From the IMG/VR virus record IMGVR_UViG_3300045988_022004: a DNA stretch of 60,777 nucleotides, one strand, 5' to 3'. Below the pieces are notes generated by a model, which worked only from the letters and a program-made list of their open reading frames with translations, was not told the DNA's origin and did not search any database. Shown here in pieces: positions 28,095 through 43,800 of the stretch. Source of the DNA: a virus. Every line of letters starts with the position of its first letter. Position 1 is the stretch's first letter. The translations under genes and the position numbers were made by a program.

Positions 28095-28129
28095 TATAAT
28101 TACCTCCTTATGATAATAGTTTATTTCTC

Positions 28130-28186: not shown

Positions 28187-28193
28187 ATCCTAG

Positions 28194-28304
28194 TTAAAAT
28201 AGCAAAGCTCCTAATCCAAGCCCAATTCCTACCAGTGCAATTACCGGTCCCAGAATTGCCAATGTAATAAATACCTTTACTATGTTTGCTAAGAATTCTT
28301 TCAT
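28194..28304 (-). CDS. 36-aa hydrophobic micro-protein (MKEFLANIVKVFITLAILGPVIALVGIGLGLGALLF).
   Basis: The ATG at 28304 follows AAGGAGGAGCTAAA. The upstream part of the track ORF is leader sequence. Confidence 0.5.
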   Translation of the reverse strand: MKEFLANIVKVFITLAILGPVIALVGIGLGLGALLF

Positions 28305-28325
28305 TTTAGCTCCTCCTTTCTTCCT

Positions 28326-28377
28326 ATTATAGGAGAAGAATTTATTGCGAAAGAAGAGAGGACCTGAATTAGTCCTC
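28326..28377 (-). promoter_or_regulatory. Terminator-promoter cassette P10.
   Basis: Hairpin GAGGAC/GUCCUC at 28358-28377, TCGCAA at 28345-28350, TATAAT at 28326-28331. Confidence 0.55.
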
Positions 28378-28608
28378 ATCCTCACTCTTAATGACTTTCA
28401 TTTTTCCTTTCTGCACAAGTCTTTTTAAATCCTTATCCGTATACCCGAGTGCTCTAAGAGCATTTTCAGCCTTGGCTATTTCCTCTTCTACTTTGGCAGT
28501 TTCTTTTTGCCTTTCGATAAGGATCTTGTCAAGTCTTTCATTCTCCTCTCTTAACATCTCCAGTATGGGATCTGATTTCTTCTTTGTGCGTATAAAAAAT
28601 CTAAACAT
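28369..28608 (-). CDS. 79-aa coiled-coil protein ending in EDED.
   Basis: The ATG at 28608 follows GGAGGTGATTAGT; the track start is a GTG at 28617. Confidence 0.6.
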   Translation of the reverse strand: MFRFFIRTKKKSDPILEMLREENERLDKILIERQKETAKVEEEIAKAENALRALGYTDKDLKRLVQKGKMKVIKSEDED

Positions 28609-28622
28609 ACTAATCACCTCCT

Positions 28623-28673
28623 ATAAAGAGATATGAATTTCTTGCGAAAAGGAAACGGGCTTTGAATCGCCCG
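28623..28673 (-). promoter_or_regulatory. Terminator-promoter cassette P11, with a weak -10 box.
   Basis: Hairpin CGGGC/GCCCG at 28656-28673, TCGCAA at 28642-28647, CTTTAT at 28623-28628. Confidence 0.35.
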
Positions 28674-28684
28674 CGTCCCTAGAC

Positions 28685-28903
28685 CTATTTAGTTTTCTTC
28701 TTTGATTTTCTAGAATCATACCACATCTGCAGTTGGCCATACTCCCATACGCATGCACCATATCCAACTATGCTAAGTGCTAATCCGATATAGAGACCTA
28801 CATTGTAGATCATCCAGAATCCGATTATCATTAGTAATGTTGGTGCACATACAAAGCTCAAAGCTGCCAACAGTGCAAATGCTCGTTCAATCTTTCTTTT
28901 CAT
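28685..28903 (-). CDS. 72-aa two-TM membrane protein.
   Basis: Track ORF; ATG follows TAGGAGGTAAC. Confidence 0.6.
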   Translation of the reverse strand: MKRKIERAFALLAALSFVCAPTLLMIIGFWMIYNVGLYIGLALSIVGYGACVWEYGQLQMWYDSRKSKKKTK

Positions 28904-28930
28904 ATTAGTTACCTCCTAAATATAATCTTC

Positions 28931-28981
28931 ATTATAACCCATGAATATATCGCGAAAAGAAAGAGACCTTGATTAAGCCTC
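28931..28981 (-). promoter_or_regulatory. Terminator-promoter cassette P12.
   Basis: Hairpin at 28963-28981, TCGCGA at 28950-28955, TATAAT at 28931-28936. Confidence 0.55.
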
Positions 28982-29152
28982 AATCTCGCTTTCGTTCATT
29001 TCATTTACAATTCTGTCATATGCTCTTAAACCAGTGTCCTTGTCGCATGTTCTTTTTAATACCTCGTCAGTTCTTCTATCAACCACCAAGTATCTTTCAT
29101 TTTCATCCTGAACAAGTGCAATAGTTCCGTTACTTTTTACAAAATTATACAT
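28973..29152 (-). CDS. 59-aa hypothetical protein ending in EIEA.
   Basis: The ATG at 29152 follows AAAGGAGTGATTTAT. Confidence 0.55.
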   Translation of the reverse strand: MYNFVKSNGTIALVQDENERYLVVDRRTDEVLKRTCDKDTGLRAYDRIVNEMNESEIEA

Positions 29153-29168
29153 ATAAATCACTCCTTTC

Positions 29169-29221
29169 ATTATACGAATAGAAAATATTGCGAAAAGAAG
29201 AGAGGACCTGAATTAGTCCTC
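29169..29221 (-). promoter_or_regulatory. Terminator-promoter cassette P13.
   Basis: Hairpin at 29202-29221, TCGCAA at 29188-29193, TATAAT at 29169-29174. Confidence 0.5.
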
Positions 29222-29398
29222 ATCCTCGTCATCATAACTAAACCTTATTGCTACTAAATATGCAATAATTCCGCATCCAAATGATGCTATTGGATTCATG
29301 ATTCCTGTCATAGTCAATACTGCAATTACAAGTACTGCTACTGGGAATATCATAATTACCCATCTTCCATCTTTGAATGTATTTAATAATTTTTTCAT
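29213..29398 (-). CDS. 61-aa membrane protein ending in DEDED.
   Basis: Track ORF with two hydrophobic helices. Confidence 0.6.
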   Translation of the reverse strand: MKKLLNTFKDGRWVIMIFPVAVLVIAVLTMTGIMNPIASFGCGIIAYLVAIRFSYDDEDED

Positions 29399-29436
29399 AT
29401 CTGTGTACCTCCATAATTTTGTTTAGTATAGTTCTC

Positions 29437-29489
29437 ATTATACTAAAAGAATTAAATGCGAGGCAAAAGAAAGAGGCCTTGATAGCCTC
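29437..29489 (-). promoter_or_regulatory. Terminator-promoter cassette P14.
   Basis: Hairpin at 29473-29489, TCGCAT at 29456-29461, TATAAT at 29437-29442. Confidence 0.5.
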
Positions 29490-29652
29490 AATCATCGTAG
29501 TGATATACCCATCTATAAACTCTAATGAGTAATGCTATTGGGAATAACACAATTCTTATGGGTGTATATACGAATTTATTTATCCTGTTCCGTTTCCGGA
29601 CCCAATCCTTATATTCATCCGATTTCATCCATTCCGAATATGTTTGTGCCAT
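29488..29652 (-). CDS. 54-aa membrane micro-protein (MAQTYSEWMKSDEYKDW...IRIVLFPIALLIRVY...).
   Basis: ATG follows AAGGAGGTAACTATT. It is not in the track. Confidence 0.5.
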   Translation of the reverse strand: MAQTYSEWMKSDEYKDWVRKRNRINKFVYTPIRIVLFPIALLIRVYRWVYHYDD

Positions 29653-29688
29653 AATAGTTACCTCCTTAAATATAATGGTTTATCTCTC

Positions 29689-29740
29689 GTTATATGACGT
29701 GAGATTTTTGCGAAAAGAAAGAGACCTTGAATTAGGCCTC
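29689..29740 (-). promoter_or_regulatory. Terminator-promoter cassette P15.
   Basis: Hairpin at 29721-29740, TCGCAA at 29708-29713, TATAAC at 29689-29694. Confidence 0.5.
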
Positions 29741-29926
29741 AATCTCCTTTAAATAATTCTTATGTAATTTTTTCATACGATATATGAATTTTACCATATT
29801 CAACACAGATCCAGATACTCTGTAAAGACCATCGTCGTCAACGCTTTTATACTCAATGCTATGACTCTTACAATAAGTCTTAAACTGTCCATCCAATTCA
29901 TCTGCAATTTCAATATATCCTTTCAT
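29732..29926 (-). CDS. 64-aa hypothetical protein ending in EIEA.
   Basis: Track ORF; ATG follows AAGGAGGAAAATGAT. Confidence 0.6.
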   Translation of the reverse strand: MKGYIEIADELDGQFKTYCKSHSIEYKSVDDDGLYRVSGSVLNMVKFIYRMKKLHKNYLKEIEA

Positions 29927-29961
29927 ATCATTTTCCTCCTTATAAATAAGTATTATTTCTC

Positions 29962-30016
29962 ATTATAAGATATGGAATTTTTGCGAGGTAAAAGAAGAGG
30001 CCCTGAATCAGGCCTC
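29962..30016 (-). promoter_or_regulatory. Terminator-promoter cassette P16.
   Basis: Hairpin GAGGCC/GGCCUC at 29997-30016, TCGCAA at 29981-29986, TATAAT at 29962-29967. Confidence 0.55.
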
Positions 30017-30277
30017 TACTCTTTGATCATCAATAATTTTGAAGTATTCAATTTTAATGTCCGGATAGCATTCTGTTATATACTTTCTTATTTTGAGATA
30101 TGTTCCATAGTGCATCTTGCAATTCAATACCCATTCTCCATTGATGAATAATACATCTGCCGATTGTATCTTACCTTCAGTGTATCCGCACCAATCAAGT
30201 ATTCCTGATATTCGTCCCAAGATATAGTCGTTAACATCATTCTCTTTGATTATAATTTGATATAACATTTTATCCAT
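30008..30277 (-). CDS. 89-aa hypothetical protein ending in VEA.
   Basis: Track ORF; ATG follows AAGGAGGATTTTAT. Confidence 0.6.
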   Translation of the reverse strand: MDKMLYQIIIKENDVNDYILGRISGILDWCGYTEGKIQSADVLFINGEWVLNCKMHYGTYLKIRKYITECYPDIKIEYFKIIDDQRVEA

Positions 30278-30313
30278 TATAAAATCCTCCTTAAATATAA
30301 TTATTTAGTTCTC

Positions 30314-30338
30314 ATTATACTCGGTGAAAATTTAGCGA
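30314..30338 (-). promoter_or_regulatory. Promoter-like cassette P8: TCGCTA-N13-TATAAT-GAGAAC. It is the first promoter after the late/lysis operon.
   Basis: Consensus geometry, 83 nt downstream of the holin stop. Confidence 0.5.
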
Positions 30339-30377
30339 AAAAGAAACACTCCATGAATATCCAGCGATAATGTAACG

Positions 30378-30408
30378 TCCCTAGACCCTCGCATAGAAAG
30401 TCTAGAGA
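30378..30408 (-). terminator. Hairpin with a TC(C/T)CTAGAC / GTCTAGRGA stem at the end of the late operon.
   Basis: Stem of 8 of 9 bp with a 13-nt loop, directly after the holin stop. The same stem sequence occurs at 33034-33065. Confidence 0.4.
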
Positions 30409-30420
30409 CATATATGCATA

Positions 30421-30645
30421 CTACTGCCTTTTTGCCGAAGCAGCTTTGCGTTTGTTATGCTGGCTGGTGCTAATACCGAGCAGAGCACCAAGAAAAGTAT
30501 CTACTGCAGTAATAGTTCCTACGACCTGGTCTCCATACGGAAGACCCCAGATGGTAGCAAGTGTAAAATACAGAGTACCAATCGCTGGTAAGGCAATCAA
30601 TGCAATCCATTTAAGAATATCATACTGTTTATTTGTTAACTTCAT
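30421..30645 (-). CDS. Holin, resembling the Dp-1/phi-LC3-type small two-TM holin family.
   Basis: MKLTNKQYDILKWIALIALPAIGTLYFTLATIWGLPYGDQVVGTITAVDTFLGALLGIS with a basic tail. The ATG at 30645 follows GGAAGGAGAAAG. It is the last gene of the late operon. Confidence 0.6.
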   Translation of the reverse strand: MKLTNKQYDILKWIALIALPAIGTLYFTLATIWGLPYGDQVVGTITAVDTFLGALLGISTSQHNKRKAASAKRQ

Positions 30646-30973
30646 TTTGACTTTCTCCTTCCGATATTGGTGGTACGGTAAATATTTTGAGTCGGTTGAC
30701 TCCCTCCATAACCCTCTTTGCTGAGCCATTTCCGCCTAGTGCTTTGTACGGTTCGTAAAGATAGTCGCTCAGATTCTCATATTCATCTTTGGTGATCCAT
30801 CCGCGTTCGATGTATGTCATTCCTAACGCTACAATGCGGTCATGGGCCAGTCCAATGAGCATCTGACTTTGTAACGATTTTTTGTCATCTTTTTTCTGGA
30901 GCCAAGCCCAGAATCCCGAGGATGCAATAACCGAGCACAACACAGTAATAATTATCGATACGATGCTTTCCAT
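30629..30973 (-). CDS. Protein with an N-terminal TM helix, in the lysis-cassette neighbourhood.
   Basis: Hydrophobic N-terminus (IVSIIITVLCSVIASSGFWAWL); adjacent to the holin. Confidence 0.55.
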   Translation of the reverse strand: MESIVSIIITVLCSVIASSGFWAWLQKKDDKKSLQSQMLIGLAHDRIVALGMTYIERGWITKDEYENLSDYLYEPYKALGGNGSAKRVMEGVNRLKIFTVPPISEGESQNEVNK

Positions 30974-32498: not shown

Positions 32499-32978
32499 TT
32501 AGCAGCAACCGTTATTAGTTGATCCGCAGTAGCATCCAAACCCGTAATTAGCATATGGATTTGGTACTGTAAATGCCGGAACAGCAGCTGGACGTAACTG
32601 ATTAACGAGATACTGGTTCTGAGCACACTGAGATGCTGTAAGCTCCAGTTTGTTAATAGCAGCCTGCTGGCTAGCGATTGTCTGATCTTTTGCATCCATC
32701 TGCATTTTGACCATTTCATCATGCAGAGCGCGATAGTTGGCATTATCATTGTCAATAATGTCTCTTGTCTGATTTTGAATAGCGTTAGTGATAGCGCATG
32801 TATTTGTAGCCATATCATACTGAATCTGAGCCTGACCCTGACGGTTCTGGCAGCAGCAATCAGCTAACTGTGTCTGGATAGCATTTGTTGACTGTAAATT
32901 TGCGATATTGGAAGCATTAGCACTGTCACTAATAGCATTCTGAAGAGCGTTAGTAGACTGAAGCAGGCTAGTGTTCAT
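32499..32978 (-). CDS. Q/N/A-rich coiled protein with an internal CCC and a C-terminal Cys cluster (GFGCYCGSTNNGCC).
   Basis: 159 aa from ATG 32978. It has three NA(L/I)QN-type repeats. The track's TTG start at 33104 runs through the leader hairpin. Confidence 0.55.
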   Translation of the reverse strand: MNTSLLQSTNALQNAISDSANASNIANLQSTNAIQTQLADCCCQNRQGQAQIQYDMATNTCAITNAIQNQTRDIIDNDNANYRALHDEMVKMQMDAKDQTIASQQAAINKLELTASQCAQNQYLVNQLRPAAVPAFTVPNPYANYGFGCYCGSTNNGCC

Positions 32979-32992
32979 AGCATAGAATCCAT
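32975..32992 (-). promoter_or_regulatory. 5-codon upstream ORF (MDSML) whose TGA overlaps the ATG of 32499..32978.
   Basis: AAAGGAG-N10-ATGGATTCTATGCTATGA. The ATGA overlap suggests translational coupling. Confidence 0.35.
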
Positions 32993-33033
32993 AGCAAAAC
33001 AGCTCCTTTCTTATTTTGATTGAAATGTTCTTA

Positions 33034-33065
33034 TCCCTAGACACAAACGAGTAAAAGTCTAGGGA
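33034..33065 (-). other. Perfect 9-bp hairpin TCCCTAGAC-N14-GTCTAGGGA in the leader of 32499..32978.
   Basis: Read directly from the sequence. Confidence 0.6.
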
Positions 33066-33144
33066 TGTTATTAAATTTTCTTTTAACGTCGCTTGGACGA
33101 TCAAAAATTACTGCAATGGAATCACCTCCCTAAACCATTTTGAT

Positions 33145-33483
33145 TTATGTCAAAGACTCGCTGGTAGCCTCTGATTCGGATGTAACAATTGGATCGTTCT
33201 TGTAGGCTCTGATGGTGACATCATTAGATAACCCATCATGGATCTCAATAACATTGTCCAGTTTGAACCCGTCGAATGTAGTGACATTTTCATTGTCGTC
33301 TGTGATCTCCATATGAGAGATATTGTCGGCATTGCGGGCCGTAGAAGCGATTCTGTCAAACACTGCTGGGGATTCATATGTTGAAGTAATGTTCAGATAA
33401 GTTCTACCTGATTGATTCTGAGCATACTCTCTTGTAAATTTGCGAATATCAACTGTCGTTCCGTTTCCGAATTTAAGTTTCAT
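33145..33483 (-). CDS. Hypothetical protein.
   Basis: Track ORF; its start overlaps the radical-SAM gene's stop by 11 nt. Confidence 0.6.
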   Translation of the reverse strand: MKLKFGNGTTVDIRKFTREYAQNQSGRTYLNITSTYESPAVFDRIASTARNADNISHMEITDDNENVTTFDGFKLDNVIEIHDGLSNDVTIRAYKNDPIVTSESEATSESLT

Positions 33484-34810
33484 TTTGATCCTCCTTACTT
33501 AATTCTTTAAGCATATTAAGTTCTTCCTCTCCAATAATAGGAATGGCCCATTCATCTGGGCAGTATATTTTGAATCTCTGTTTCCAATGTTTCTTACGAT
33601 ACCACTTATTCCAGAAGTATGCATTTGCAAGAGATCGGGTCTTGTGCATATCGCAAATATAAGTACAACGAGAATCTGGAGTTCCATTTTCTTGGTAGTT
33701 GTACGCAGAGCACCAACTGCAACCCTCGGCTATAGGGCAATAGAAGCATTCGTCACTAGACTCTGTTCTTCTGTTGATCTTATTCAGACATTCAACGCAT
33801 TGCTTGTCGCATGTTCTCTGTGCAATCCCGAAATTTACGTGGCCAATTCTAAGCGGTTCTCGAGATGTTCCTAGACTGCTCTCCATATATCTTATACATG
33901 GATAAAGCCATCCGTCTGGGTCCATCGCCAGCATGAAGCCAGTTCCTCCACACCAGTTTTCGACATCCGTTTCTTCCTTTGGTTTGAAGAAGTCATTCTC
34001 GAATAATGCCATGAAATGGTCGTCGGCTAAGTCATTTTCAAGCCAATAATCGGCTAACATTTTGAGCTGCTCATAATAGATTTTTGCATGCTCCAATGTC
34101 CATCCCTTTTCATAAACGACGTTCGCATTGATATCTTTGTATCCAAGTTCTACCATATGTTTAATCGCCGAGAATAGATGCTGCACATTACCTGGTGCTA
34201 TGGTGATCTTAGAGCCCATATAGTATCCTCTTGATATCCAATCACGAGCTCCAGCTACTGCCACATCATAAGACCCAGTACCATCTGGAAAGACTCTACA
34301 AGCATCATGCAGAGCCTTATTTCCATCGATGGTAATTGAGAAAGAGAGATTATGCCGCCATTTGTTCAGGAACTTCTGAACCTTAGGCTCAAAATATAAT
34401 ACACCATTTGAGCAAATCGAAATACAAAATTTTGTTGCCCATGGGTGCATCAACTCGATAGCCTTATCATAGAAATACGTGCAAATCTGATCAATAAGAT
34501 CCACGCATAAGAAAGGCTCTCCGCCAATAAACTCAATGATAATGCCAGGTGATGTAGAGGCGTCGATGTAGTTACCGAGGCGTTCATCTCCAGTAAGAAG
34601 CATATCAATGAGTTTCTTTGCATCTTCGAATTTCATTTTTCTCTTACCTTTGTTTATCTGATAGCAGTAAGTACAGCATAAATTGCACTCGTCTGTTACT
34701 TGAAAGGTCACGGTACGAGATAAAGTTCTTCTGTCAGATGCATTATTTGTAATAATTGTCTCAGGATACAACCTTCCGATCATATCCTGAAACTGTTCGA
34801 ACTTCTTCAT
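33473..34810 (-). CDS. Radical SAM enzyme with a C-terminal SPASM-type auxiliary cluster domain (peptide-modifying / anSME-like class).
   Basis: CNLCCTYC (CxxxCxxC, nt 34664-34687), FIGGEPFL, WCGGTGFMLAMDPDGWLYPC, and CFYCPIAEGCSWC...C. Confidence 0.8.
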   Translation of the reverse strand: MKKFEQFQDMIGRLYPETIITNNASDRRTLSRTVTFQVTDECNLCCTYCYQINKGKRKMKFEDAKKLIDMLLTGDERLGNYIDASTSPGIIIEFIGGEPFLCVDLIDQICTYFYDKAIELMHPWATKFCISICSNGVLYFEPKVQKFLNKWRHNLSFSITIDGNKALHDACRVFPDGTGSYDVAVAGARDWISRGYYMGSKITIAPGNVQHLFSAIKHMVELGYKDINANVVYEKGWTLEHAKIYYEQLKMLADYWLENDLADDHFMALFENDFFKPKEETDVENWCGGTGFMLAMDPDGWLYPCIRYMESSLGTSREPLRIGHVNFGIAQRTCDKQCVECLNKINRRTESSDECFYCPIAEGCSWCSAYNYQENGTPDSRCTYICDMHKTRSLANAYFWNKWYRKKHWKQRFKIYCPDEWAIPIIGEEELNMLKELSKEDQNET

Positions 34811-34814: not shown

Positions 34815-35144
34815 TTAGCCCTCTAATACGGTAATGTGTACGAGGTGCTCTGAAAAGTCTGTTACTGCCCATCTGAATTTAACATCTTTTCCTTCATGCT
34901 CCAGAACACGAGGCTGTAAAGACTTTTCTAACTCAGCTTTAGCAATGTCGTAGGAACACTCAGCCTCTTCAAGCAGTTTGTGATAATGCTTAAATGGTAC
35001 TGAGTCCAGCACTGAAGCATCCGTATCATCTTTCGCCGACTCAAGCATATGAGCTACAACGTCTTTTCTAGTCATAACCTCGTATGCAAGTCTCTGTAAA
35101 TAGTCAGCTGTTTCCTTGTTAAGTTCTAATGTAAAGTTTTTCAT
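34815..35144 (-). CDS. Hypothetical acidic helical protein; possible partner or chaperone of the radical-SAM enzyme.
   Basis: Track ORF between the Cys-rich gene and the radical-SAM gene. Confidence 0.55.
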   Translation of the reverse strand: MKNFTLELNKETADYLQRLAYEVMTRKDVVAHMLESAKDDTDASVLDSVPFKHYHKLLEEAECSYDIAKAELEKSLQPRVLEHEGKDVKFRWAVTDFSEHLVHITVLEG

Positions 35145-35217
35145 ATTGGTTAACTCCTTTTCTTTTAATTCATTTTATATTTCTGTTATTTCGAATAGCA
35201 CTTCGATATAGGATCTA

Positions 35218-36285
35218 CTATCCTGAGACTACAGCTCCAAATGCTTGAGCTTGACAGGTACCAGTGCACGTTGCTGAACATGTGGTAGCGCATGCGTTTT
35301 TACACTGACCGCTACACCCATTACTACACCCATCACAATTTCCAGTACATGAACCGTAACATCCAGAACCACATCCTGAACATCCACCACAGCCTCCAGA
35401 GCAGCCAGCACAACCTTGGCATCCAGTTGTACATGACGATTCGCAGCTGGCCGAACACCCACTACACCCACTACAGGATAAACTACACGAGCCAGAGCAT
35501 GCGCCATCACATGAGGAACAAGTTGATCCGCAACCGCTACAACCGCTACAACCGCTACATGACGAACATGATGAGCATGAGCTAGCACACCCCGTGCAAC
35601 TATAGCATGTTGCGCATGACGAACCTTTACCACTTGCTGAACATGAACTAGAACAAGATCCTCCACATCCAGCGCACCCAGAACAACTCTGGCATGATCC
35701 ACTGCACCCATTGCATCCACTGCACCCATTGCTACATCCGTCACAGCTACCAGTACATCCACTACATCCAGTTGTACATGTGCCAGAGCATGAGGAACAT
35801 TCGCTACACCCACCACCGCAATTACCGCTGCATCCGCCGCATCCGCTTGATCCACTGCCACCAGATCCTCCAGATCCAGTACATCCACCAGAGCAGCTAC
35901 TACAGCCGCTACATGTATTACCGCACGTCCCTACACATAGTCCAGAGCATGCTCCACGACATGAAGAGGTAGCCCCATCGATTGGCTCTTTAGACAATGT
36001 GTCAGTGTAAGATAGTAACTCGTTGTTGAACGATGACGGAATCTTAGATCCTGTCTTAAGATCGGCAGTATTCAAATTGCCATGGTCCTTAATATTCAAC
36101 AAAGGCTCGATTACTTTTTTGCCTTGGTCAGCGGTGACTTTGGTTCCAGATGTAGGAGTTGTGGAGAAGTCGTACGATGCAGATGCGAACCCAGTCATAG
36201 AACCATTGTATGCTCTACGCTGCATTTCCGTTTTTACCTTAGCTTTTAGAGAGTTTACCTCTGCCGCGGTAAGAAAATTAGGCAT
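35218..36285 (-). CDS. Hyper-cysteine repeat protein: a 108-aa N-terminal domain followed by about 235 aa of (C-X2-3)n made of C/S/G/T.
   Basis: The ATG at 36285 follows AAGGAGGTTGAAGATA. There are 63 Cys after residue 108, for example CSGCSGCSGCGSTCSSCDGACSGSC. Confidence 0.7.
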   Translation of the reverse strand: MPNFLTAAEVNSLKAKVKTEMQRRAYNGSMTGFASASYDFSTTPTSGTKVTADQGKKVIEPLLNIKDHGNLNTADLKTGSKIPSSFNNELLSYTDTLSKEPIDGATSSCRGACSGLCVGTCGNTCSGCSSCSGGCTGSGGSGGSGSSGCGGCSGNCGGGCSECSSCSGTCTTGCSGCTGSCDGCSNGCSGCNGCSGSCQSCSGCAGCGGSCSSSCSASGKGSSCATCYSCTGCASSCSSCSSCSGCSGCSGCGSTCSSCDGACSGSCSLSCSGCSGCSASCESSCTTGCQGCAGCSGGCGGCSGCGSGCYGSCTGNCDGCSNGCSGQCKNACATTCSATCTGTCQAQAFGAVVSG

Positions 36286-36416
36286 TATCTTCAACCTCCT
36301 TTTCAAAAGATTTATCTGATTTTTCCTCCAGGGGATTTTTTACATTTCGTTTTTCGTTATCTTTTGTAAAACGATCATTTCCCGATAAATACATTATCCA
36401 TATCCCCCATTTTGAA

Positions 36417-38801
36417 TTATCCCCATATCGCTGCTAATGGTACCCAGGCAGAACCATTGTAAAACCTAGCTACACCTGACGTATCAATCCATAGAAGCTT
36501 TGTATTAGATGGGGCTGAAGCGCCGTAAGAAGTTCCACCAGACGATAGCTCGGTTACAGTTCCATCTTCAGCAACATGCTTCATAGCATTTCCATTACCA
36601 GAGTCAATCCATAAAGTGCTCCTTTTGGCGTTTGGCTTTGAATCTGATTTAACAACGTCAGAACCATATATATCTAAAGCTCTAGTTGGAGTCCATTTAC
36701 TTCCGGTCCAATATTGTATGAGACTTCCACTAGATGGGTCAATCCATAAATCTCCAACTTTAGGATTAGTAGGAGCGTTTACCCCATAGCTAACGCCTCC
36801 AGACTCTGCTGATTTCTTGATTGACTCTAACAGATATTTACCATTAGGAGCATCTGCGTGGAATGACTGAACATTTCCTGGAGAGATTATATGAGTAACC
36901 GAATCGAATGATTTTAGATCGAAATTAGGAAACTTTGTATCTTCGGTGATCTTCATAGTAGAGGATTGGTATGGGGCGAATACTGTTGTGTCGGAATCGT
37001 CAAGAGTTACCATGATGTCCGAAATTGTAGCATTAACATTTGAAGCTGGGTTATTATGTTGAATCGCAATAATGACATGATGTTCGCTCCAATCATAAGC
37101 ATCATGTTTTAAAATATCAGAAAAGTTTTTAACATATACATTTGTATTTGTAAAAACTTGAATGTACGCTTCAACATTAGTTACACTTTTTTTAGCGCTT
37201 ATTTTTAGGTCATGTCCCGCTTTTAGCATTCTCAAAAGAAATGCATTACATTCATCCGTACTAATAATGAAAGCTAAAAATGATTTTTCAGTTGTTCCTT
37301 CGATTTTAATCATTCCTTCTTTTAAAGCTGTAAATGTGAGACCATTATTATTCGCAGTTTTCTGAGCATACGGATAAGAAAGAATATTCTTCCCGTATGT
37401 CTTAATATCATATCCAGAATATGGGACGAAATCGTCTATTGTAGCTTCTAGATCAGTTGTAACCATTGGCTTAAATATAAGATTTGTCACTGTTGTTCCC
37501 TTATTAATATATAACCGATAATTTAAATAAGGATAAGCATCATTTATAATTACCCCATTTCCAATATCAGATGCTACAGCTTTCAATTCTGAATTTAATT
37601 CGGAACTATTATAATAACAAACGTCAATTCGGTAAGTGTCTTGGCTTCCATTTATAGGGCAACCTAGCATCTTACATCCCCCAACAGTATTTTCAAATGG
37701 GACCGATTGCGAGCTATTACCTTGTAAATAAAACACATAGTTTTCACGTGCAGTGCCATCCAGTTTCAGCGTACCATCATTGATTTTAGTCATTTTTATC
37801 CCATAACCACTATGCGCTGCGAATGGTGGTTTTAATAAATTCCTCATGGCATTACCTAACATTAACGGAGCTTCGACAGTACCTGTTAGATCTGTTTTCG
37901 TTGACTCGATAAGAGACACTTTCTCTTTGCCTAGCTTTTCTGTTTCCAGAGTAAGTTTAGCACCAAGGTCGCCTTCGAGTTTGTTTTTCATATTCTCAAA
38001 CCACTTATCGAACTCGGCCTGAGATGATTTTTCCCACTGCTGGAATGTTGACCAGTTAGCATCGTAAGCGGCTTTAATCGTAGCAAACCACTGGTCATAG
38101 CCGTTCTTAATACTATCATACCATTCCTGATAATCCGATTTTGAAGTTGCTTCCCAATCAGCAATCTCTTTCTTAGCGGCAGCAAGCCAAGCCTGATAAT
38201 CCTGTTTCTCGCCATTCATCCAGGTATTGAAATTTGCGGTATTCTCCTCTACAAACTTATTCAAGATATCTTTCCACTGAGGTATAAGCTGTTCGATGCT
38301 AATTACCTCAAGAATACCTGTAACAAACGGGCAAGCGCTCGTCCCTACACAGTTCTCAATATCTGCCTGCCTAATGGACGTAACCTCTTTGCCAACCTTA
38401 ACGTAAGCCAACGGATACTGATGAACTTCCTTAGTATTTGTCAGTGCTGGCTTGGTAGGTGTAGAAGATGGCGTTCCTTTAATTAGTTTAATGCTGTTTG
38501 CTCTTACGGCCTCAACAGAGTTTATCTCCAAAACAATTGCGTCAATTCGGTCCATAAGAATCTCTGATGGTGGAATTGTCACTGGGTAAAGCGCATCGTT
38601 GTAACTCCAAGTATGATTGAACCATGCTCGGCCAGTTCCAACTGTTACGTTCATCTGGTTGCTTTGCTTAACGACCATACAGTCACCAATAGATGCAAAA
38701 ATTCCATCTCGAATTAAGCCATCAAATAATCTTGAAATGTCGGTAGCATCATATAATCTATCATGATCTACGGAATTAAAAAATCCAGATGCAAAACTCA
38801 T
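36417..38801 (-). CDS. Tail fibre / receptor-binding protein.
   Basis: 794 aa directly after Tal. The N-terminus FFNSVDHDRLYDATDISRLFDGLIRDGIF is typical of Firmicutes phage fibre proteins. The C-terminus has a threefold ...LWID...W.P repeat. Confidence 0.65.
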   Translation of the reverse strand: MSFASGFFNSVDHDRLYDATDISRLFDGLIRDGIFASIGDCMVVKQSNQMNVTVGTGRAWFNHTWSYNDALYPVTIPPSEILMDRIDAIVLEINSVEAVRANSIKLIKGTPSSTPTKPALTNTKEVHQYPLAYVKVGKEVTSIRQADIENCVGTSACPFVTGILEVISIEQLIPQWKDILNKFVEENTANFNTWMNGEKQDYQAWLAAAKKEIADWEATSKSDYQEWYDSIKNGYDQWFATIKAAYDANWSTFQQWEKSSQAEFDKWFENMKNKLEGDLGAKLTLETEKLGKEKVSLIESTKTDLTGTVEAPLMLGNAMRNLLKPPFAAHSGYGIKMTKINDGTLKLDGTARENYVFYLQGNSSQSVPFENTVGGCKMLGCPINGSQDTYRIDVCYYNSSELNSELKAVASDIGNGVIINDAYPYLNYRLYINKGTTVTNLIFKPMVTTDLEATIDDFVPYSGYDIKTYGKNILSYPYAQKTANNNGLTFTALKEGMIKIEGTTEKSFLAFIISTDECNAFLLRMLKAGHDLKISAKKSVTNVEAYIQVFTNTNVYVKNFSDILKHDAYDWSEHHVIIAIQHNNPASNVNATISDIMVTLDDSDTTVFAPYQSSTMKITEDTKFPNFDLKSFDSVTHIISPGNVQSFHADAPNGKYLLESIKKSAESGGVSYGVNAPTNPKVGDLWIDPSSGSLIQYWTGSKWTPTRALDIYGSDVVKSDSKPNAKRSTLWIDSGNGNAMKHVAEDGTVTELSSGGTSYGASAPSNTKLLWIDTSGVARFYNGSAWVPLAAIWG

Positions 38802-38825
38802 ATTTTTCCTCCTTTATCTTATTCT

Positions 38826-39965
38826 TTAAGAGCCGACTGGTATTCTGTTATCATCGGCGCTTACAAAGTCTGTAAAAGTAGGGTATGAAGTTTCCCCACT
38901 AGAATCTTGGGACATAATAAATTCCGACACGGTCGACGTCCCCTTAATACCATAGTCGTTTTCTATCTGTACTATATCCCCCATTTTGAAATCTCTTCCA
39001 TACACAAACATAGTATGAGGATCGACGTCCCCGTCCATAGATATTGTATGTGGCTTCTCAGCTAGAGCCTCTTTGCCCTTCTGAGCAACTACTTTTAATC
39101 GTTCGGCGTCGCTCATCTTATGGTCCTCATCCTCAGATGTTATAGATCCCGCGTCAACATATATCTCACATCTATGCATTCCGCTTAATTGTTTCTGGGA
39201 TTCCCCATCCCTAGTTACTTCTTTAGTAATCTTCAATGGATTCCCTGATAACGTCTGTGTATCTCCATCCTCCCCAACAGTTAATGCAACATTCGCGTAA
39301 TCTTCTTTACTGTCAAGATAAGATGTGTTATTTAAGTTTTCAAATGACGGACTGAATACAACATATGGAGTTAATTGCTGTGCATAAGATCTATCGATAC
39401 CTTTGTACAGCTCAAACTCGAATTGTTTATTTTCATTTAGTGTAATTTTAAACCCAATTTGTTTCTCGACACAAAGTGAGTTTATTGCCTCGTATAAGTT
39501 TTCATGTTGCTCATATTTAGCGTCAATTGTTAAAGCAGTTATTCTGCTGTCTGTACTCTTCTTGAATACAAAGTTAGAAATCTTTCTTTCTGATTTTGAC
39601 GGCGATATGATAGCGTCATTTATTAGCTTCTGTACGCCATCTTGGAAATTGCCACTCAGGGTAGTATTGTCCCAGATGATCCTACGCTTCAATAAGCTCT
39701 CAAGGGAATAACCTATTACTTTAATTGTAGGTCCTTCTGTGGCATTTGTTTCTAGAAGCATTCCCTGAATAATCATCATGTGAACTGAACTATCATTTTG
39801 AAGATAGTAATCGTTGACTAGATAAGGGAATACCCCATCCATATCCAAAGTGAGGTATAGTTCAAAGTCCCCATTTTCTTGATACCTATCAGTCCAAATG
39901 AAGGACTTGAACCTGTCAATGATGGCTACTTTTTCAAACCGTGAGTTTAATATTGTAGCTTCCAT
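38826..39965 (-). CDS. Tail-associated protein (Tal; prophage-tail endopeptidase N-terminal type).
   Basis: Follows Dit. The N-terminus ILNSRFEKVAIIDRFKSFIWTDRY is typical of siphophage Tal proteins. Confidence 0.65.
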   Translation of the reverse strand: MEATILNSRFEKVAIIDRFKSFIWTDRYQENGDFELYLTLDMDGVFPYLVNDYYLQNDSSVHMMIIQGMLLETNATEGPTIKVIGYSLESLLKRRIIWDNTTLSGNFQDGVQKLINDAIISPSKSERKISNFVFKKSTDSRITALTIDAKYEQHENLYEAINSLCVEKQIGFKITLNENKQFEFELYKGIDRSYAQQLTPYVVFSPSFENLNNTSYLDSKEDYANVALTVGEDGDTQTLSGNPLKITKEVTRDGESQKQLSGMHRCEIYVDAGSITSEDEDHKMSDAERLKVVAQKGKEALAEKPHTISMDGDVDPHTMFVYGRDFKMGDIVQIENDYGIKGTSTVSEFIMSQDSSGETSYPTFTDFVSADDNRIPVGS

Positions 39966-39981
39966 TATTTACCTCCTTAAA

Positions 39982-40890
39982 TTATACTCCTTCATAGATT
40001 GTATCATTTTCAATCTTGAACTGAATACTCATTGCGCCTTCTGTAGCATTGTAAATGAAGATGTTATCTCCTTTTGACAGCTGAAACCAACTAGATCCTT
40101 TGCCTAGACAGTTTAGAATGTTTGTTGTCAGTCCAGCTCTCAATAATGTAACTGACTTTTCTCCTCGCTTAGTGTTAATGATAATATCATCTCCAGCACC
40201 ATATGCTTGTCCAGTTAAGGTCTGTATAAAGTCAGTATTTATCCTCATAACTTCACGAGTTCTAGCATTATAGATTACGATATCTTTTACCGTATCTAAT
40301 GCATGAATCGTTATTATTATGCCAACCGAAGCATCTCCTTTGTACGTTACTATATTCTCGTACATATGCACAATATCGCCGAAGTTTATGAGCTTTTCAG
40401 TTAACGAGTTGTTTTCAAATGGAAATTCAAATTTAGGATTGACGCCACTAAATAATGTAAGCGTCTTTCCATTAGTTGCATAAAAGTATGGATCTGGACA
40501 AATTACGGAAATCTGAGTTGCTTCGTGTTCCTGGAATATTGCAGGTTCATTTGACTCGACGTAACCGAAAGCGTCAAGAGATCTCTGATCCGTTACAAAT
40601 GTCAACGTGACGTATCTCTTGATAGGGAAATACTTATATGTAGTATGTCTAATAGTTTCGATGTCCGTTCCGAATCTAAAGTCCAGATCCATAACAATGT
40701 TTCTAGTTTCAAGCTTAGCACTATTGTATAATGCTCCGTCGCCGGTCGCTATCTCACTAGTATTGATCGTGGCCTTTACAGGCCCTAATCCATCGATGTT
40801 TGTTATAGCTAGACCCGAAACCTCAGGCCTAGCTAATTCCATTTCTAGGGATTCCCCTAAATAATTAGTAACAATTACTTTCTTTATCAT
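39982..40890 (-). CDS. Distal tail protein (Dit).
   Basis: Directly after the tape measure gene. Contains VTNYLGESLEMELARPEVSGLAITNIDGLGPVKATIN. Confidence 0.75.
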   Translation of the reverse strand: MIKKVIVTNYLGESLEMELARPEVSGLAITNIDGLGPVKATINTSEIATGDGALYNSAKLETRNIVMDLDFRFGTDIETIRHTTYKYFPIKRYVTLTFVTDQRSLDAFGYVESNEPAIFQEHEATQISVICPDPYFYATNGKTLTLFSGVNPKFEFPFENNSLTEKLINFGDIVHMYENIVTYKGDASVGIIITIHALDTVKDIVIYNARTREVMRINTDFIQTLTGQAYGAGDDIIINTKRGEKSVTLLRAGLTTNILNCLGKGSSWFQLSKGDNIFIYNATEGAMSIQFKIENDTIYEGV

Positions 40891-43800
40891 TTAAGAGCCC
40901 CCTTTAACTGACTAAACTGATTCTTTGTCTGTCGATATATCTCTGTATTAGATAATGCAACAGGGGAATTGTTTGTCTGATTGAATGTGTAGTTATTAGT
41001 TACATTGGTACTAGATCCTTTTAGAGCGCGACCAGTTTTACCCCTTCCGCCGTTCTGCAATGCCGCTAAGGCTTTGCTAAGACCGCTACCTTTGCCAAAC
41101 ACACTTCCGGCTATTCCACTAGCTATAGAAGCTGCCAAACCAGCGCTAGTTCCAGCTGCAGAAGATCCTGTTGCTGTTGCCACTGTACCGGATACTATAC
41201 TTGAAAGATTTGACGTATTTACATTAGCAGATAACGTAGGCATTCTTATCTTCGATAATACAGCGTTTACGGCATCTACTAAAGCTTGAGCAGCACTTAC
41301 AGCTGAAGGTATTGCACCTTTTATTCCGTTAGCGAATGAATTACCGAGTGAAGTTCCTTTTGATCCGGCTTTTCCACTGCCTTTTCCAAATTCAGACAAC
41401 GCTTTATTGACTACAGCTTTACAAGAGGCTTCTACAGTTGACAATACTGATGAAGATGAGAGTCCGATAGCAAAGCGCGTACCCATAGATTCTCCAGCAG
41501 ATTTAAAAGCTTTCTTGAAGTTTGTCTCTACGTAATTCGTGAAAGTAGAGCAAGCGTTCTTAGCAGATTTCTTTGCTGACTTTGCAACGCTGTCTGCAGT
41601 AGAGTCAATTCCAGCTTTAAATTGTCCTCCAGCTTTCTTGCCAGAAGACTTAAATGACGTATTTGTGTTAAGTGCTTCGCCAAATGACTTAGCAACTGCA
41701 TTAACTGTCTTTGTCGCTGCAGACCCTTTTAGATTTCTAGATGATCCTTTCTTAGAAGAGGTGGCTTTACCGGTAGCGGCATCAATCATTCCTTGATACA
41801 TAGAATTAACAGCTCCTAAACCTGCTTCTTTGTATGAGTCTGATACTTCTTTAGAAACTTCTTCGTTCATAGACAGTGTGTCTTTGTAATACTGATTTAT
41901 CTGTTTCTTTTCTTCAGGCGTCATTTGAAAATACGCGTCAACAATATCTGCGCCATCTAATCCTTTGTTGATTAACTCTTGAAGTAATCTAGGATCTAGA
42001 TCTTTCGATAGCACTACAATTTCGTCTCGCCATTTCTTAACAGATTCCATATTATCTTTTGCCTGCTGTAATATCTGATCTTTAGTCATTTGCATCTTCT
42101 CTTTGAATACTGCATTTGTTCGTTCAATCTGATCAGCCGTAGCAAGTCTGAATCCTTCGATATATGGTATTGCTTGTGTTCCTAGACTTTTAAGATAGTC
42201 AAGGAGCCCATCTGCGAAATTCATCTTTCGTAGTTCCTCGATACCTTCGATAACTCTCTTTTCAGCATTAACCTGAGACCACATACGGTCTATGATGGTA
42301 TCATTGCCAAGATCATTAACGACTTCTTCATATCTGGTAAAGTAATCCGTAGAACTTGAAATATCAAAGTTTGCGAATGATGTAAAACTGTCAAGGCTGC
42401 TCTTTACAGATTCTGCCATAGACTTAGCAGTATCTTCGATTTTCTTCTTCGCATCATCCCAATCATTATTAATTTTCTTGAGATTCTTCTCCATTTCTTT
42501 GGCTGCTTCTGAAACAGCATTAGGGATTTCTTTTACGTCCTTCTTAACCTCTTTCGCAGTTTTCTTTACATTCTTCTTAGCCTTCTTCTTAGCTGCCTCT
42601 TTTTCCTTCTTTAAAGCAAACGACTTAATAATATCATTAGCTCCAGACTTTTGAAGTTTAAGATTCTTAACGTATACATTGTTGATTTCTTTACGCTCTT
42701 CGTCTGAAAACGTTAGCATCTCTAATACTTTACTAAGATTTCCAGGTCCTTCATCAACCAATTCCTGAACAAGGCGAATATCCCAACCTTGGTTGAGCAT
42801 CTTCTTTATGGAATTCTTCCATTTAACAGCATCTTGATAGGTTTTCTTATAAGAAGCAATAATGTCTTCTTTGCTTTGTTTACTGGCTTCTGCATAAGCT
42901 GTATTCGCTCTATCGATTTCTTCTTTCGAAGCATTAGCGAATAGCTTAATGTACGCATAACCAGACTCACCCATACCTTTAAGAGTGTCGATAAGTCCCT
43001 TGCTAAGTCCCTTCTTTGCCGCCTGCGCAAGATTATCTTTCATTTCCTGATAACCTTCAACCTGACTTTCCATGTTCTTAAGAACAGTACTCATTTCGTC
43101 GTCCATAGAATCAGAGAACTCTGAGAATATATTTCTAGAGTTATCGAATGCAATATTCGTAAACTTAGTATATTCTTTTATTGAATTAATGATGTTGTTT
43201 CTATATTCTTTGAACGTTGAGTTAATGTTAGATTGTATGCTTTTCTGATCTTCTTTCAGCTGTTTTACAGCATTTTTGATTGCTGTGTTATTTTCCTTAA
43301 TGGCTGAATTAAGATTCTTTTTATTAAGCTTCTTACCTGATGCGCTAAGGCCCTTCTTCAAACGATCCTGTGTTTTAAGAAGCTTCTTCAAAGCTGCTTC
43401 GTGCTGTTTAACGGACTTTGTATCTTCTTTATACTGATCTGATTCCTTATACAGGGCAATAGCAAAATTCTTGATAGTTTTTTCGGCAGTTTTAGTAGCT
43501 TTACTAAGTGTCTTAAGCTTAGGTGTTGTCTTAAGCAGCTCTTTTCCTAAACTCTTAGAAATTTTAGTAATCGTCTCATACGGAGTTTTATTGAATGAGC
43601 TTACAGCCTTATCGAAAGTCTTTCCAAACTGATAAGCGACCTTAATGATTTTGGTCATCTTTATCTTTGCTTTCTTACTGTTCTTTTTAGACTTACTTGC
43701 GATCTTCTTAGAAGTTGCATCGTATGCGCTAGTTACGCCAGCTCCAGTTTTGTTAGCATTTTTGATAATATCTTTTGTCGTTTTATCCATTTGATCAGAG

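Follow-up and report, generated by a model that had tools for sequence, protein, structure and literature searches.

What does a virus make of a 355-aa protein in which a Cys recurs at almost every third or fourth residue over most of its length? The question is raised by a gene in a 60,777-nucleotide stretch of viral DNA (the window; IMG/VR virus record IMGVR_UViG_3300045988_022004), whose features are listed in Table 1. The original prediction for this gene had described 63 Cys in a (C-X2-3)n array, and this is borne out by the protein sequence. The protein contains 63 Cys, 75 Ser, 69 Gly and 31 Thr, and its Cys run from residue 109 to residue 344, making up 27% of this 236-aa array and 18% of the whole protein. 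The spacing between successive Cys (n = 62) is 4 in 32 cases, 3 in 28, and 9 and 14 in one case each; the 60 spacings of 3 or 4 compare with a mean of 15.5 (sd 3.4, maximum 31) in 10,000 shuffles of the array residues. Spacings of 1 or 2 never occur, i.e. the protein has no CC and no CXC, and with its 355 aa it is not a metallothionein, as had been argued. Nor is it collagen-like, also in line with the earlier view, as Gly is enriched at position +2 after Cys (46-71%) and the period switches between 3 and 4 with no regular G-X-Y. The motif CDGCSNGCSG occurs twice as reported, aromatic residues are nearly absent (two Tyr), hydrophobic residues are few, and Asp, Glu and proline account for 3.5%, 1.3% and 0.2% of the array residues, respectively.

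Table 1 Features of the Cys-array locus in the window
Feature	Position	Strand	Basis or remark
Cys-array protein gene, including stop codon	35218..36285	minus	355 aa, 63 Cys; 535 homologues at E <= 0.001
Shine-Dalgarno sequence AAGGAGGT	36294..36301	minus	Direct sequence reading; ATG 8 nt downstream
Conserved N-terminal domain, residues 1-108, family-defining	35962..36285	minus	Alignment, AF2, profile search
(C-X2-3)n array, residues 109-344	35254..35961	minus	Conserved entry motif CRGACSGLCVGTC at its start
Short C-tail QAQAFGAVVSG, stop codon and 73-nt spacer with deletion scar	35145..35253	minus	Alignment A5
109-aa conserved partner, immediately upstream of the radical-SAM gene	34815..35144	minus	34/36 compared loci, 33/39 viral loci
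Radical-SAM/SPASM maturase, 445 aa, TIGR04115 family	33473..34810	minus	NCBIfam match above cutoff
112-aa accessory protein, often conserved beside the radical-SAM gene	33145..33483	minus	14 matches in 36 compared loci
C-terminal 'LWIDxSxG...(K)YYNG..W.P...WG' module of the 794-aa fibre, residues about 683-794	36420..36755	minus	Conserved upstream neighbour

At the DNA level, the array is GC-rich as predicted (51.9% versus 39.2% for the whole window). Its description as repetitive holds for 9-nt micro-tandems of 2-4 copies and one 18-nt doublet, but a long perfect repeat is absent. Likewise, the array was said to be open in several frames, which is true of the sense +1 frame with its single stop but not of the two better antisense frames (3-4 stops) or the other two frames (18-26 stops). 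The ATG, rather than an upstream TTG, was taken as the start codon because homologues keep the start MPNFLTAAE. No signal peptide or transmembrane segment was predicted in the protein, and a promoter/terminator scan and folding of the flanking spacers gave nothing above background. Scans of the whole protein against Pfam, NCBIfam, PHROGs and PADLOC yielded no match, probably due to composition filtering, and PDB sequence searches with its N-domain, the C-terminal domain of relatives, the 109-aa partner and the whole array protein returned nothing significant.

The N-terminal domain had been regarded as ordinary, but it is a conserved domain that defines a family. A profile search with this N-domain retrieved 678 clusters at 50% identity, in which a conserved domain of ~105 aa precedes a C-[S/T]-G-(x) array with 11-145 Cys, and the Cys number of the window protein is about three times the family median. 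Over 120 homologues, 3,630 of about 3,800 Cys intervals are 3 or 4 (4 in 2,592 and 3 in 1,038). Cys counts are even in 127 cases and odd in 126, and this random parity argues against obligatory Cys pairing. In the N-domain alignment (A2), E20 and R24 are invariant, and K14, R23, G28, D39 and P44 are near-invariant. The AF2 model of a full-length relative shows a helical fold for the N-domain (pLDDT 83-98), for which Foldseek found no PDB match and only two family members in BFVD. In the same model, the array has a pLDDT of 30-40 and no confident fold; since neither the array nor the C-terminal domain is confidently modelled, no stalk geometry can be claimed. Family proteins range from 200 to 970 aa, the large ones having arrays embedded between other domains, and two-gene versions include array-only proteins without the N-domain.

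Among 40 near-identical phages, the array varies from 214 to 256 aa and all copies differ from one another, and yet the frame is intact in 40/40 and the Cys are retained. The length variation anticipated for this gene is thus real and in frame throughout, and the frame disruption and drifting Cys positions that would have spoken against the protein were not seen. Cys columns are 97.7% Cys compared with a majority-residue frequency of 85% in non-Cys array columns; synonymous TGT/TGC variation occurs in 61 of the 63 Cys columns, and a non-Cys codon ever occurs in only 7. The Cys of the array are under purifying selection. These comparative data bear on the notion that the array is an artefact, a non-coding GC-rich repeat open by chance, which might be entertained as the sense +1 frame is nearly open too (1 stop). 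The strong RBS, the homologues found both by direct search (535 at E <= 0.001) and by the N-domain profile (678 clusters), the frame held in all 40 relatives despite indels and the excess of synonymous over nonsynonymous change at Cys codons all stand against it, and we consider it effectively refuted. The RBS, the homologues and the position of the gene between fibre and holin genes agree with the earlier view of a real late protein.

The original prediction had missed that the window copy is truncated. Its close relatives are 456-538 aa long and have an additional C-terminal domain behind a variable poly-G tract; the C-terminal domains of relatives are of at least four exchangeable types. 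The 73-nt spacer 3' of the array gene keeps a 3' remnant of the coding sequence of this domain (alignment A5). Judged from this alignment, the window copy arose by a deletion that removed the swappable C-terminal domain. No informative family was found for the C-terminal domains of the relatives, for a domain inserted in homologue P0086 or for the C-terminal domain of phage L156.

Two genes downstream of the array gene, the window encodes a radical-SAM (rSAM)/SPASM enzyme that matched TIGR04115, 'radical SAM peptide maturase, CXXX-repeat target family', with 495.6 bits (cutoff 350) over model positions 2-359 of 359. Its CX3CX2C cluster motif (C42/C46/C49) and a full set of SPASM cysteines (C287-x12-G-x4-C305; C355-x2-C358-x5-C364-x2-C367; C386) are all invariant in alignment A1. 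The next-best families included the thioether-forming maturases PapB, whose 167 bits lie far under its cutoff of 340, QhpD (106 bits) and the SCIFF maturase (95.5 bits), and the anaerobic sulfatase maturase family scored 54.5 bits. Among solved structures, the thioether synthase CteB (5WGG, E = 1.2e-18) is nearest; the alignment starts at CteB residue 88, indicating that the window enzyme lacks the N-terminal RRE that occupies CteB residues 1-87. Inteins at at least three sites in the rSAM indicate that its gene is under strong constraint. A role in defence was considered and rejected, as PADLOC showed only generic rSAM similarity to viperins. The 109-aa partner was modelled by AF2 with a pLDDT of 92 as a helical hairpin plus a three-stranded sheet, a fold that is not RRE-like and for which Foldseek found no PDB match; in homologue P0026, the array protein is fused to the partner family. 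Family scans gave no assignment for the 112-aa protein.

The linkage of these genes was conserved when approached from either side. At rSAM loci in bacterial genomes, an N-domain/array gene was present in 25 of 28, and in 24 of these it lay immediately upstream in the same orientation. Conversely, diverse viral loci found via the N-domain carried the rSAM in 34/39 and the partner in 33/39, and most of those without one or the other end at contig ends. The module, in the order fibre C-terminal module, array protein, 109-aa partner and rSAM, recurs in phages and prophages of gut Clostridia and also occurs in jumbo phages. Together with the TIGR04115 enzyme two genes downstream, this two-way conservation strongly supports the array protein as a very probable substrate of the rSAM, as the original prediction had suggested in proposing a polyvalent rSAM substrate. 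Neither the N-domain nor a nearby enzyme is strictly required, since array-only proteins exist and phages L046 and L156 have arrays but no rSAM inside the 6-8 kb flanks examined. No protease, exporter or transporter belongs to the conserved cassette among the loci compared, and at one locus, L045, a papain-like peptidase adjoins the rSAM. The hosts identified are all gut or rumen Bacillota and other anaerobe-associated lineages, which fits an oxygen-sensitive enzyme. Cultured hosts whose prophages bear the cassette include Anaerolentibacter hominis CSJ-1, Eubacterium pyruvativorans i6 and Desnuesiella massiliensis mt10. In the INPHARED collection of isolated phages, the N-domain had no match and the rSAM only two distant ones, both from uncultured gut-virome records.

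The cassette lies within the tail morphogenesis module. In the window, the gene order is TMP, Dit, minor tail protein, 794-aa fibre and array gene, with a holin further downstream; the array gene is co-oriented with the tail genes and, as had been claimed, directly follows the fibre gene, which ends at 36417, 131 nt upstream. The array gene has the same position in L044, L080, L081 and L082. The fibre C-module, which has weak DUF2510 similarity and otherwise no informative family, was found directly upstream of the array gene in 21/32 relative loci compared and 27/39 viral loci. Usually the module sits between tail and lysis genes, and in unrelated siphovirus-type and contractile-tail prophages the cassette likewise follows tape-measure, baseplate and fibre genes and precedes a holin or amidase. 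The interval between fibre and lysis genes is also a site for phage cargo genes, which counts against a tail role. Searches of PHROGs, Pfam and the PDB yielded no match for the array protein.

What the original prediction had also missed is that the pairing of enzyme and target is already catalogued, as the TIGR04115 maturase with the TIGR04114 and PF27846 ('tSAM_targ_Cxxx') repeats, alongside TIGR04117 for Syntrophobacter-type targets. The CXXX-repeat rSAM target system was reportedly defined bioinformatically by Haft and Basu in J Bacteriol in 2011, and we know of no experimentally characterised member. The window pair shares with it an enzyme above the TIGR04115 cutoff, an adjoining target and a Cys at every third or fourth residue. 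Unlike the catalogued targets, the window protein falls below the cutoff of the TIGR04114 repeat model, to which its entry motif alone matched with 15.3 bits (cutoff 20); homologue P0045 exceeds this cutoff with 21.9 bits, and many homologues carry PF27846. The pair is a new member of this catalogued but uncharacterised kind. Our literature searches found no experimental work on the CXXX-repeat/TIGR04115 pairing, nor any account of its place in phage tail modules, of the N-domain and 109-aa partner or of the linkage to the fibre C-module.

Taken together, we propose that the array protein is a fibre-associated, multi-site rSAM substrate that is made late and stapled by thioethers, a reading to which, as a whole, we give slightly less than an even chance. 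The array protein, the partner and the rSAM would be made in the host cytoplasm late in the infection of an anaerobic gut Clostridium. The maturase itself has no peptide-recognition domain and therefore probably acts together with the 109-aa partner; it most likely proceeds along the C-[S/T]-G-(x) array and installs many covalent staples. By analogy with the closest characterised relatives, the staples would be thioethers between the sulfur of a Cys and a carbon in a residue close by; the chemistry is not simply transferable, since Asp and Glu, the acceptors of PapB and QhpD, are rare in the array. Stapled in this way, the flexible Gly/Ser/Cys chain would become a rigid rod or spacer that resists proteases and cannot be reduced, and crosslinks of this kind would be of advantage in surroundings that destabilise disulfides. 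The crosslinked stalk suggested earlier is therefore plausible. We infer that the protein is incorporated into the virion, where the folded N-domain most likely docks onto the fibre C-terminal module or nucleates assembly and the product would form a distal component associated with the fibre. In relatives, the array bears the exchangeable C-terminal domain at its far end, whereas the window copy has lost this domain by deletion. A more far-reaching reading, for which we see perhaps one chance in a few, is that gut phages of anaerobes build a part of the tail fibre as an enzyme-made 'thioether ladder'. A dedicated rSAM would staple dozens of regularly spaced Cys into a non-reducible rod, the poly-G tract would toggle the presence of the exchangeable distal domain, and the array would keep its Cys register but diversify more quickly than other parts of the gene.

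The proposed stapling has to be weighed against other modifications of a structural protein. The rSAM could instead carry out epimerisation, Cys-to-formylglycine or dehydro-residue conversion or C-methylation, and crosslinks could come from disulfides or metal bridges formed after release. The SPASM enzymes do include the anaerobic sulfatase maturase, to which the window enzyme retains some similarity, and free thiols are as abundant in the array as the Asp/Glu acceptors of PapB and QhpD are scarce. However, the best-scoring characterised relatives form thioethers, the array has no sulfatase-type C/S-x-P/A-x-R motif and hardly any proline, the random parity of Cys counts speaks against obligatory pairing, and disulfides would presumably be unstable in the reducing gut. 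We consider such chemistries unlikely. Somewhat less likely still is that the array protein is a released product resembling a RiPP, with the N-domain as a long leader (like NHLP/Nif11) and the array as a modified and cleaved core. Freed at lysis, this core peptide would serve the phage or lysogen as an antimicrobial, a signal or a metal scavenger. A leader-like domain, a Cys-rich core, an rSAM/SPASM maturase and a small partner would all suit this idea, the closest characterised enzymes produce RiPPs, and L045 has a peptidase beside the rSAM. Yet protease and exporter are absent from the conserved cassette, the products, at 200-970 aa and in some cases with a folded C-terminal domain, greatly exceed RiPPs in size, and array-only proteins have no leader. 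The tight adjacency to the fibre C-module and the presence of the cassette in jumbo phages besides prophages also argue against it.

The third possibility concerns metals, and we hold it to be very improbable. A giant metallothionein could bind metal or Fe-S clusters, buffering metals or donating sulfur and iron, e.g. for the phage's own Fe-S enzymes, with its linkage to the rSAM being secondary. The metallothionein-like composition, with a high Cys content and few aromatic or hydrophobic residues, points in this direction, as do the lack of an AF2 fold in the absence of ligands and the Fe-S enzymes encoded by the phages (rSAM, and NrdG in relatives). However, this would leave unexplained a dedicated TIGR04115 maturase and partner at about 90% of loci, the adjacency to the fibre module, the C-terminal domains and the conserved N-domain, and PDB sequence searches found no similarity to any solved metal-binding protein. 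The metal- or Fe-S-binding rod offered by the original prediction found no positive evidence.

Several known systems invite comparison with the array protein. Freyrasin, the ranthipeptide made by PapB, consists of six CX3D units, each with a Cys-Asp thioether, and resembles the window protein in offering tandem short Cys units, each presumably modified in turn. In contrast, the array largely lacks the Asp acceptor and has a further Cys at i+3/i+4. The window substrate, moreover, is no peptide of about 50 aa but has 355 aa and includes a folded domain, and it is encoded among phage late genes. CteB and SCIFF likewise pair an rSAM/SPASM enzyme of Clostridia with a Cys-rich substrate, but SCIFF has 45 aa and 6 Cys and its locus is housekeeping-like and chromosomal rather than phage-borne. 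QhpD, the third-best family, provides a precedent for rSAM/SPASM thioethers within a protein subunit that remains in a larger assembly; its target QhpC, the gamma subunit of quinohemoprotein amine dehydrogenase, differs in being a small, non-viral subunit with three Cys-Asp/Glu links and no repeat array. Ranthipeptide and sactipeptide precursors in general are short, lose a leader and have a peptidase or exporter in the cluster, features that the array protein does not share, and their maturases have or pair with a PqqD-like RRE, which neither the window rSAM nor the 109-aa partner contains. Repeat-built stalks are known from phage fibres, such as collagen-like Gly-X-Y repeats and the Gly-rich polyglycine-II domain of the phage S16/T4-type gp38 adhesin. 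The array resembles them as a Gly-rich low-complexity stretch between attachment and exchangeable distal domains next to a fibre gene, but it lacks G-X-Y periodicity, its Cys rather than Gly is periodic, and its own modifying enzyme is encoded. Metallothioneins and keratin-associated high-sulfur proteins share very high Cys with Ser, Gly and Thr in between, but show no sequence similarity, no strict 3/4 spacing and no rSAM linkage, and metallothioneins are under 100 aa with CXC/CC/CXXC clusters.

Our results give the CXXX-repeat/TIGR04115 pairing a biological setting and a hypothesis: it is overwhelmingly a phage late-gene module, with a specific fibre C-module, a folded N-domain, a small partner and an intein-hosting maturase. 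If the array is crosslinked into a part of the virion, rSAM peptide chemistry would reach from small natural products to viral machines, and phages of strict anaerobes would be seen to stabilise extracellular structures without disulfides. The thioether ladder, if true, would make this the first phage tail protein in which an enzyme installs covalent crosslinks, and these would replace disulfides in a redox-proof manner. The rSAM would then also appeal to biotechnology as an enzyme that staples many sites of a simple C-S/T-G repeat processively. As a released product, in contrast, the array would rank as a phage-encoded RiPP of unusual size.

The array genes of seven prophages appeared to be split. 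A frameshift or recoded-stop reading of these was dropped, as six of them (L051, L052, L054, L057, L059 and L061) are two separate genes, the second having its own start codon and, in four, a clear RBS. The remaining prophage, L072, has an in-frame TAG within the N-domain coding region followed by an array-only ORF, possibly reflecting a pseudogene or recoding.

The open reading frame (ORF) encoding the Cys-array protein starts with an ATG preceded by AAGGAGGT and specifies 355 aa, with 63 Cys that all lie within residues 109-344, behind the N-domain (residues 1-108). Successive Cys are spaced by 4 (32 times), 3 (28 times), 9 (once) and 14 (once), never by 1 or 2, and the 60 spacings of 3 or 4 compare with 15.5 ± 3.4 (maximum 31) in 10,000 shuffles of the array, indicating that the predicted poly-Cys array is real. 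The array DNA is indeed locally GC-rich (51.9% versus 39.2% for the whole window), but calling it repetitive and open in several frames slightly overstated the case: its repeats are short (9-nt micro-tandems in 2-4 copies, plus a single 18-nt doublet), so that it is no more than quasi-repetitive, and one other sense frame is nearly open (1 stop) while the rest contain 3-26 stops. No signal peptide was found in the protein.

Coordinates of the features discussed, in the window and in relative loci (L-numbers: phages, prophages and genomes)
Feature	Sequence	Coordinates	Strand
Cys-array ORF	window	35218-36285	minus
Array-coding segment	window	35254-35961	minus
Equivalent of poly-G junction	window	35218-35230	
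Poly-G junction, after "...AFGAVV"	L001-L043 (e.g. L021, L036, L028)	L021: ~5090-5110	
109-aa partner	window	34815-35144	minus
445-aa radical-SAM/SPASM protein (rSAM)	window	33473-34810	minus
201-aa ORF (phrog_16490)	window	32499-33104	minus
Counterparts of 201-aa ORF	L002	7717-7926 + 8598-9251	
Holin	window	30421-30729	minus
Small-ORF region (~3 kb)	window	27370-30420	minus
Region similar to MT835616.1	window	37834-41876	
Two-gene target	L052	6362-6787 + 6794-7345	
Target with in-frame TAG	L072	18-611	
Five consecutive array genes	L156	4135-12378	
Intein-containing rSAM gene	L154	4825-7212	
Intein-containing rSAM gene	L161	7400-9790	
Intein-containing rSAM gene	L163	7865-10330	
Intein-containing rSAM gene	L081	9919-11871	
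Intein-containing rSAM gene	L070	7995-9704	

The protein has 535 homologues at E ≤ 0.001 in the database searched; these share an N-terminal domain of ~105 aa (consensus LKA+VKxEMxRR...GS...Y..YDF...P) and a conserved entry motif, C-x2-[AS]-C-[ST]-G-[LM]-C. Their arrays repeat the unit C-[S/T]-G-(x), spacings of 4 (2,592) and 3 (1,038) making up nearly all intervals, with 0.2% proline and few aromatics. Some homologues match PF27846 ("tSAM_targ_Cxxx_rpt") or reach a passing score for TIGR04114, both models of CXXX-repeat targets; the window protein's own entry motif scores 15.3 bits, under the cutoff of 20. Exhaustive search of 1.84 billion representatives with an N-domain profile yielded 678 clusters at 50% identity, in which the domain is nearly always N-terminal. 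In a sample of 253 family sequences the median is ~200 aa with ~20-24 Cys, and by its 63 Cys the window protein falls in the top 5% or so. The AF2 model of a full-length relative (P0002, 86-sequence alignment) is confident for a helical N-domain (pLDDT 83-98 to about residue 110), drops to 56 by residues 121-130 and to 30-40 in the array, and is low in the C-terminal domain too. Foldseek found no PDB match for the N-domain model (best E = 0.66), and only two unnamed family members in BFVD.

The window genes all lie on the minus strand in a siphovirus-like order: a 2938-aa tape measure, Dit, a phrog_538 minor tail protein, the 794-aa fibre-like protein, the Cys-array protein, the 109-aa and 445-aa proteins, a 112-aa protein, several unknowns and a holin. 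The 445-aa protein scored 495.6 bits (cutoff 350) against TIGR04115, "radical SAM peptide maturase, CXXX-repeat target family", ahead of PapB (167 bits), QhpD (106 bits) and SCIFF maturase (95.5 bits), and carries CX3CX2C and a complete set of SPASM cysteines. Among solved structures, that of the thioether synthase CteB (5WGG) is closest; the two align only from CteB residue 88 onwards, and rSAM therefore lacks CteB's N-terminal peptide-recognition domain.

Linkage between enzyme and array was examined from both sides. A TIGR04115-like rSAM is present at 28 bacterial-genome loci, spanning Agathobacter (75% identity), Lachnoclostridium, Blautia, Eubacterium, Oscillospiraceae, Desnuesiella and others. 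An N-domain/array gene accompanies it at 25 of these, in 24 cases immediately upstream and co-oriented; the exceptions include one locus whose sequence does not extend upstream and one degraded prophage end in which sequence is masked. Conversely, 34 of 39 diverse viral loci with the N-domain contain rSAM and 33 a homologue of the 109-aa partner. Among the five lacking rSAM, three run into a contig end or locus boundary, and in L153 the upstream stretch that holds rSAM in its near-duplicate L152 is missing. The partner family lies directly upstream of rSAM, frequently overlapping it, and is fused to the array protein in one homologue (P0026). Its AF2 model is confident (pLDDT 92), showing a long helical hairpin on a three-stranded sheet, with no significant PDB match and no likeness to a PqqD-like RRE. 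The third conserved neighbour is the fibre C-module, the C-terminal 50-110 residues of the fibre (motif LWIDxSxG...(K)YYNG..W.P...WG), which ends a few nucleotides 5' of the array gene in 21/32 relative loci and 27/39 viral loci. As in the window, the cassette of array gene, partner and rSAM lies between baseplate/fibre genes and holin/amidase in a contractile-tail prophage (L044), and other siphovirus-type phages (L080, L081, L082) have it in the same position; in the large-phage loci L045 and L083 it falls outside any recognisable tail module.

Inteins were observed in five TIGR04115-type rSAM genes, four with LAGLIDADG homing endonucleases, at varying sites (near CX3CX2C, residue 295 or residue 360). 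The genes in which inteins persist are, as a rule, essential and highly conserved.

We compared 40 IMG/VR phages carrying the array gene and an rSAM 98-100% identical. Frame-disrupting variation and poorly conserved Cys, which the original prediction had named as contrary evidence, were both looked for: the array is in frame in 40/40, and Cys columns remain 97.7% Cys. TGT and TGC both occur at 61/63 Cys columns, and a non-Cys codon is ever seen at only 7. All 40 arrays differ (214-256 aa), and mean pairwise identity is 84.9% in the array versus 96.6% in the N-domain, with hot zones at residues 161-200 and 241-300. Synonymous diversity is ~1.9 extra codons per column in the array versus ~0.8 in the N-domain, a gap that alignment uncertainty may inflate. 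Replaced segments are mosaic with conserved anchors on either side, which suggests recombination or repeat-mediated turnover, not relaxed selection alone.

Seven prophages appeared to have split genes, but no array is disrupted in any. Six (L051, L052, L054, L057, L059, L061) are two-gene versions, in which gene 1 encodes the N-domain and a short array (11-33 Cys) and gene 2 an array alone (44-88 Cys) with its own start codon; four second genes begin MACS..., and four of the six loci have a clear RBS for them. The seventh, a Clostridium MAG copy (L072), has an in-frame TAG within the N-domain coding region and could be a pseudogene or a case of stop-codon recoding.

Close relatives are 456-538 aa long, extending beyond "...AFGAVVSGG" with a 129-185-aa C-terminal domain that occurs in at least four sequence types. 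Between array and domain lies a poly-G tract (G4-G9, three backgrounds) whose length sets the frame: G5 is in frame and G4 and G6 out in the first background, G9 in and G7 out in the second, G7 in and G8 out in the third. The distal domain is out of frame in at least eight relatives; four others carry nonsense mutations that arose independently, and several show differing deletions. Misassembly of G runs is possible for the homopolymer cases and excluded for the nonsense mutations and deletions. Every copy keeps both the N-domain and the array, so the distal domain is dispensable or switchable, and from these sequences it looks phase-variable or repeatedly lost. The window junction is deleted, identically to L043, and the 73-nt spacer there can still be aligned to the final ~25 nt of the full-length gene; judged by this alignment, the window copy is C-terminally truncated by deletion.

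The three genes target, partner and rSAM are linked, the Cys register is strictly conserved while the rest of the array diverges fast, and the array gene lies in the late operon beside a specific fibre module. With a TIGR04115 enzyme and linkage found in both directions, the predicted polyvalent radical-SAM substrate is strongly supported, and the array protein is very probably a substrate of rSAM, which would modify many Cys along the array. Whether this chemistry yields thioethers is evenly balanced; it is proposed by analogy, because the best characterised relatives form thioethers, QhpD within a protein subunit. A virion or fibre role has similarly even prospects. Taken together, an rSAM substrate bearing thioethers and forming a fibre-associated stalk is our best, still tentative, explanation, and the crosslinked stalk first suggested is plausible. 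The hosts found all belong to gut, rumen or other anaerobe-associated lineages, in which, on first principles, O2-sensitive rSAM chemistry would work and disulfides would be unreliable; non-reducible thioethers could then provide a stable extracellular structure. An all-disulfide design is also weakly disfavoured by random Cys-count parity in the family (127 even versus 126 odd), and the metal-binding rod found no support. The overall argument is weakened by scarce Asp and Glu acceptors in the array, by array-only proteins without the N-domain, and by a few arrays without a nearby rSAM, namely two phages (L046 and L156) in the 6-8 kb flanks examined.

The enzyme-target pairing, which Haft & Basu (2011) were reportedly the first to describe, is already catalogued (TIGR04114, TIGR04115, TIGR04117, PF27846). 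Our literature search found no experimental study of it and no description of its phage-tail context, N-domain, partner protein, fibre-module linkage or poly-G junction; the window gene is thus a new, unusually long, C-terminally truncated member of a known family.

Several further observations concern neighbouring genes. In L156, a 141-kb phage contig with no rSAM in the 6-kb flank, five Cys-array proteins in a row are encoded after a fibre gene with the same C-module, one of them (968 aa) comprising array, N-domain, array and a ~430-aa beta-rich domain. In the window, no gene near the holin was recognisable as an endolysin, and the adjoining small-ORF region holds only ORFs of 45-90 aa (none ≥100 aa), several with hydrophobic, membrane-like segments. 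A further deletion has produced the 201-aa ORF by fusion: residues up to ~39 correspond to a 69-aa ORF of L002, and the remainder to a 217-aa L002 protein, whose hydrophobic, GWGNG-rich N-terminus has been lost. The fused protein terminates in a small Cys cluster, GCYCGSTNNGCC, similar to the GCGCN end in L080. The sole GenBank phage record with nucleotide similarity, MT835616.1, an unannotated human-faecal "Bacteriophage sp." contig, resembles the window only across the fibre, minor-tail and Dit genes (86% identity), a match that fits a human-gut origin for the window.
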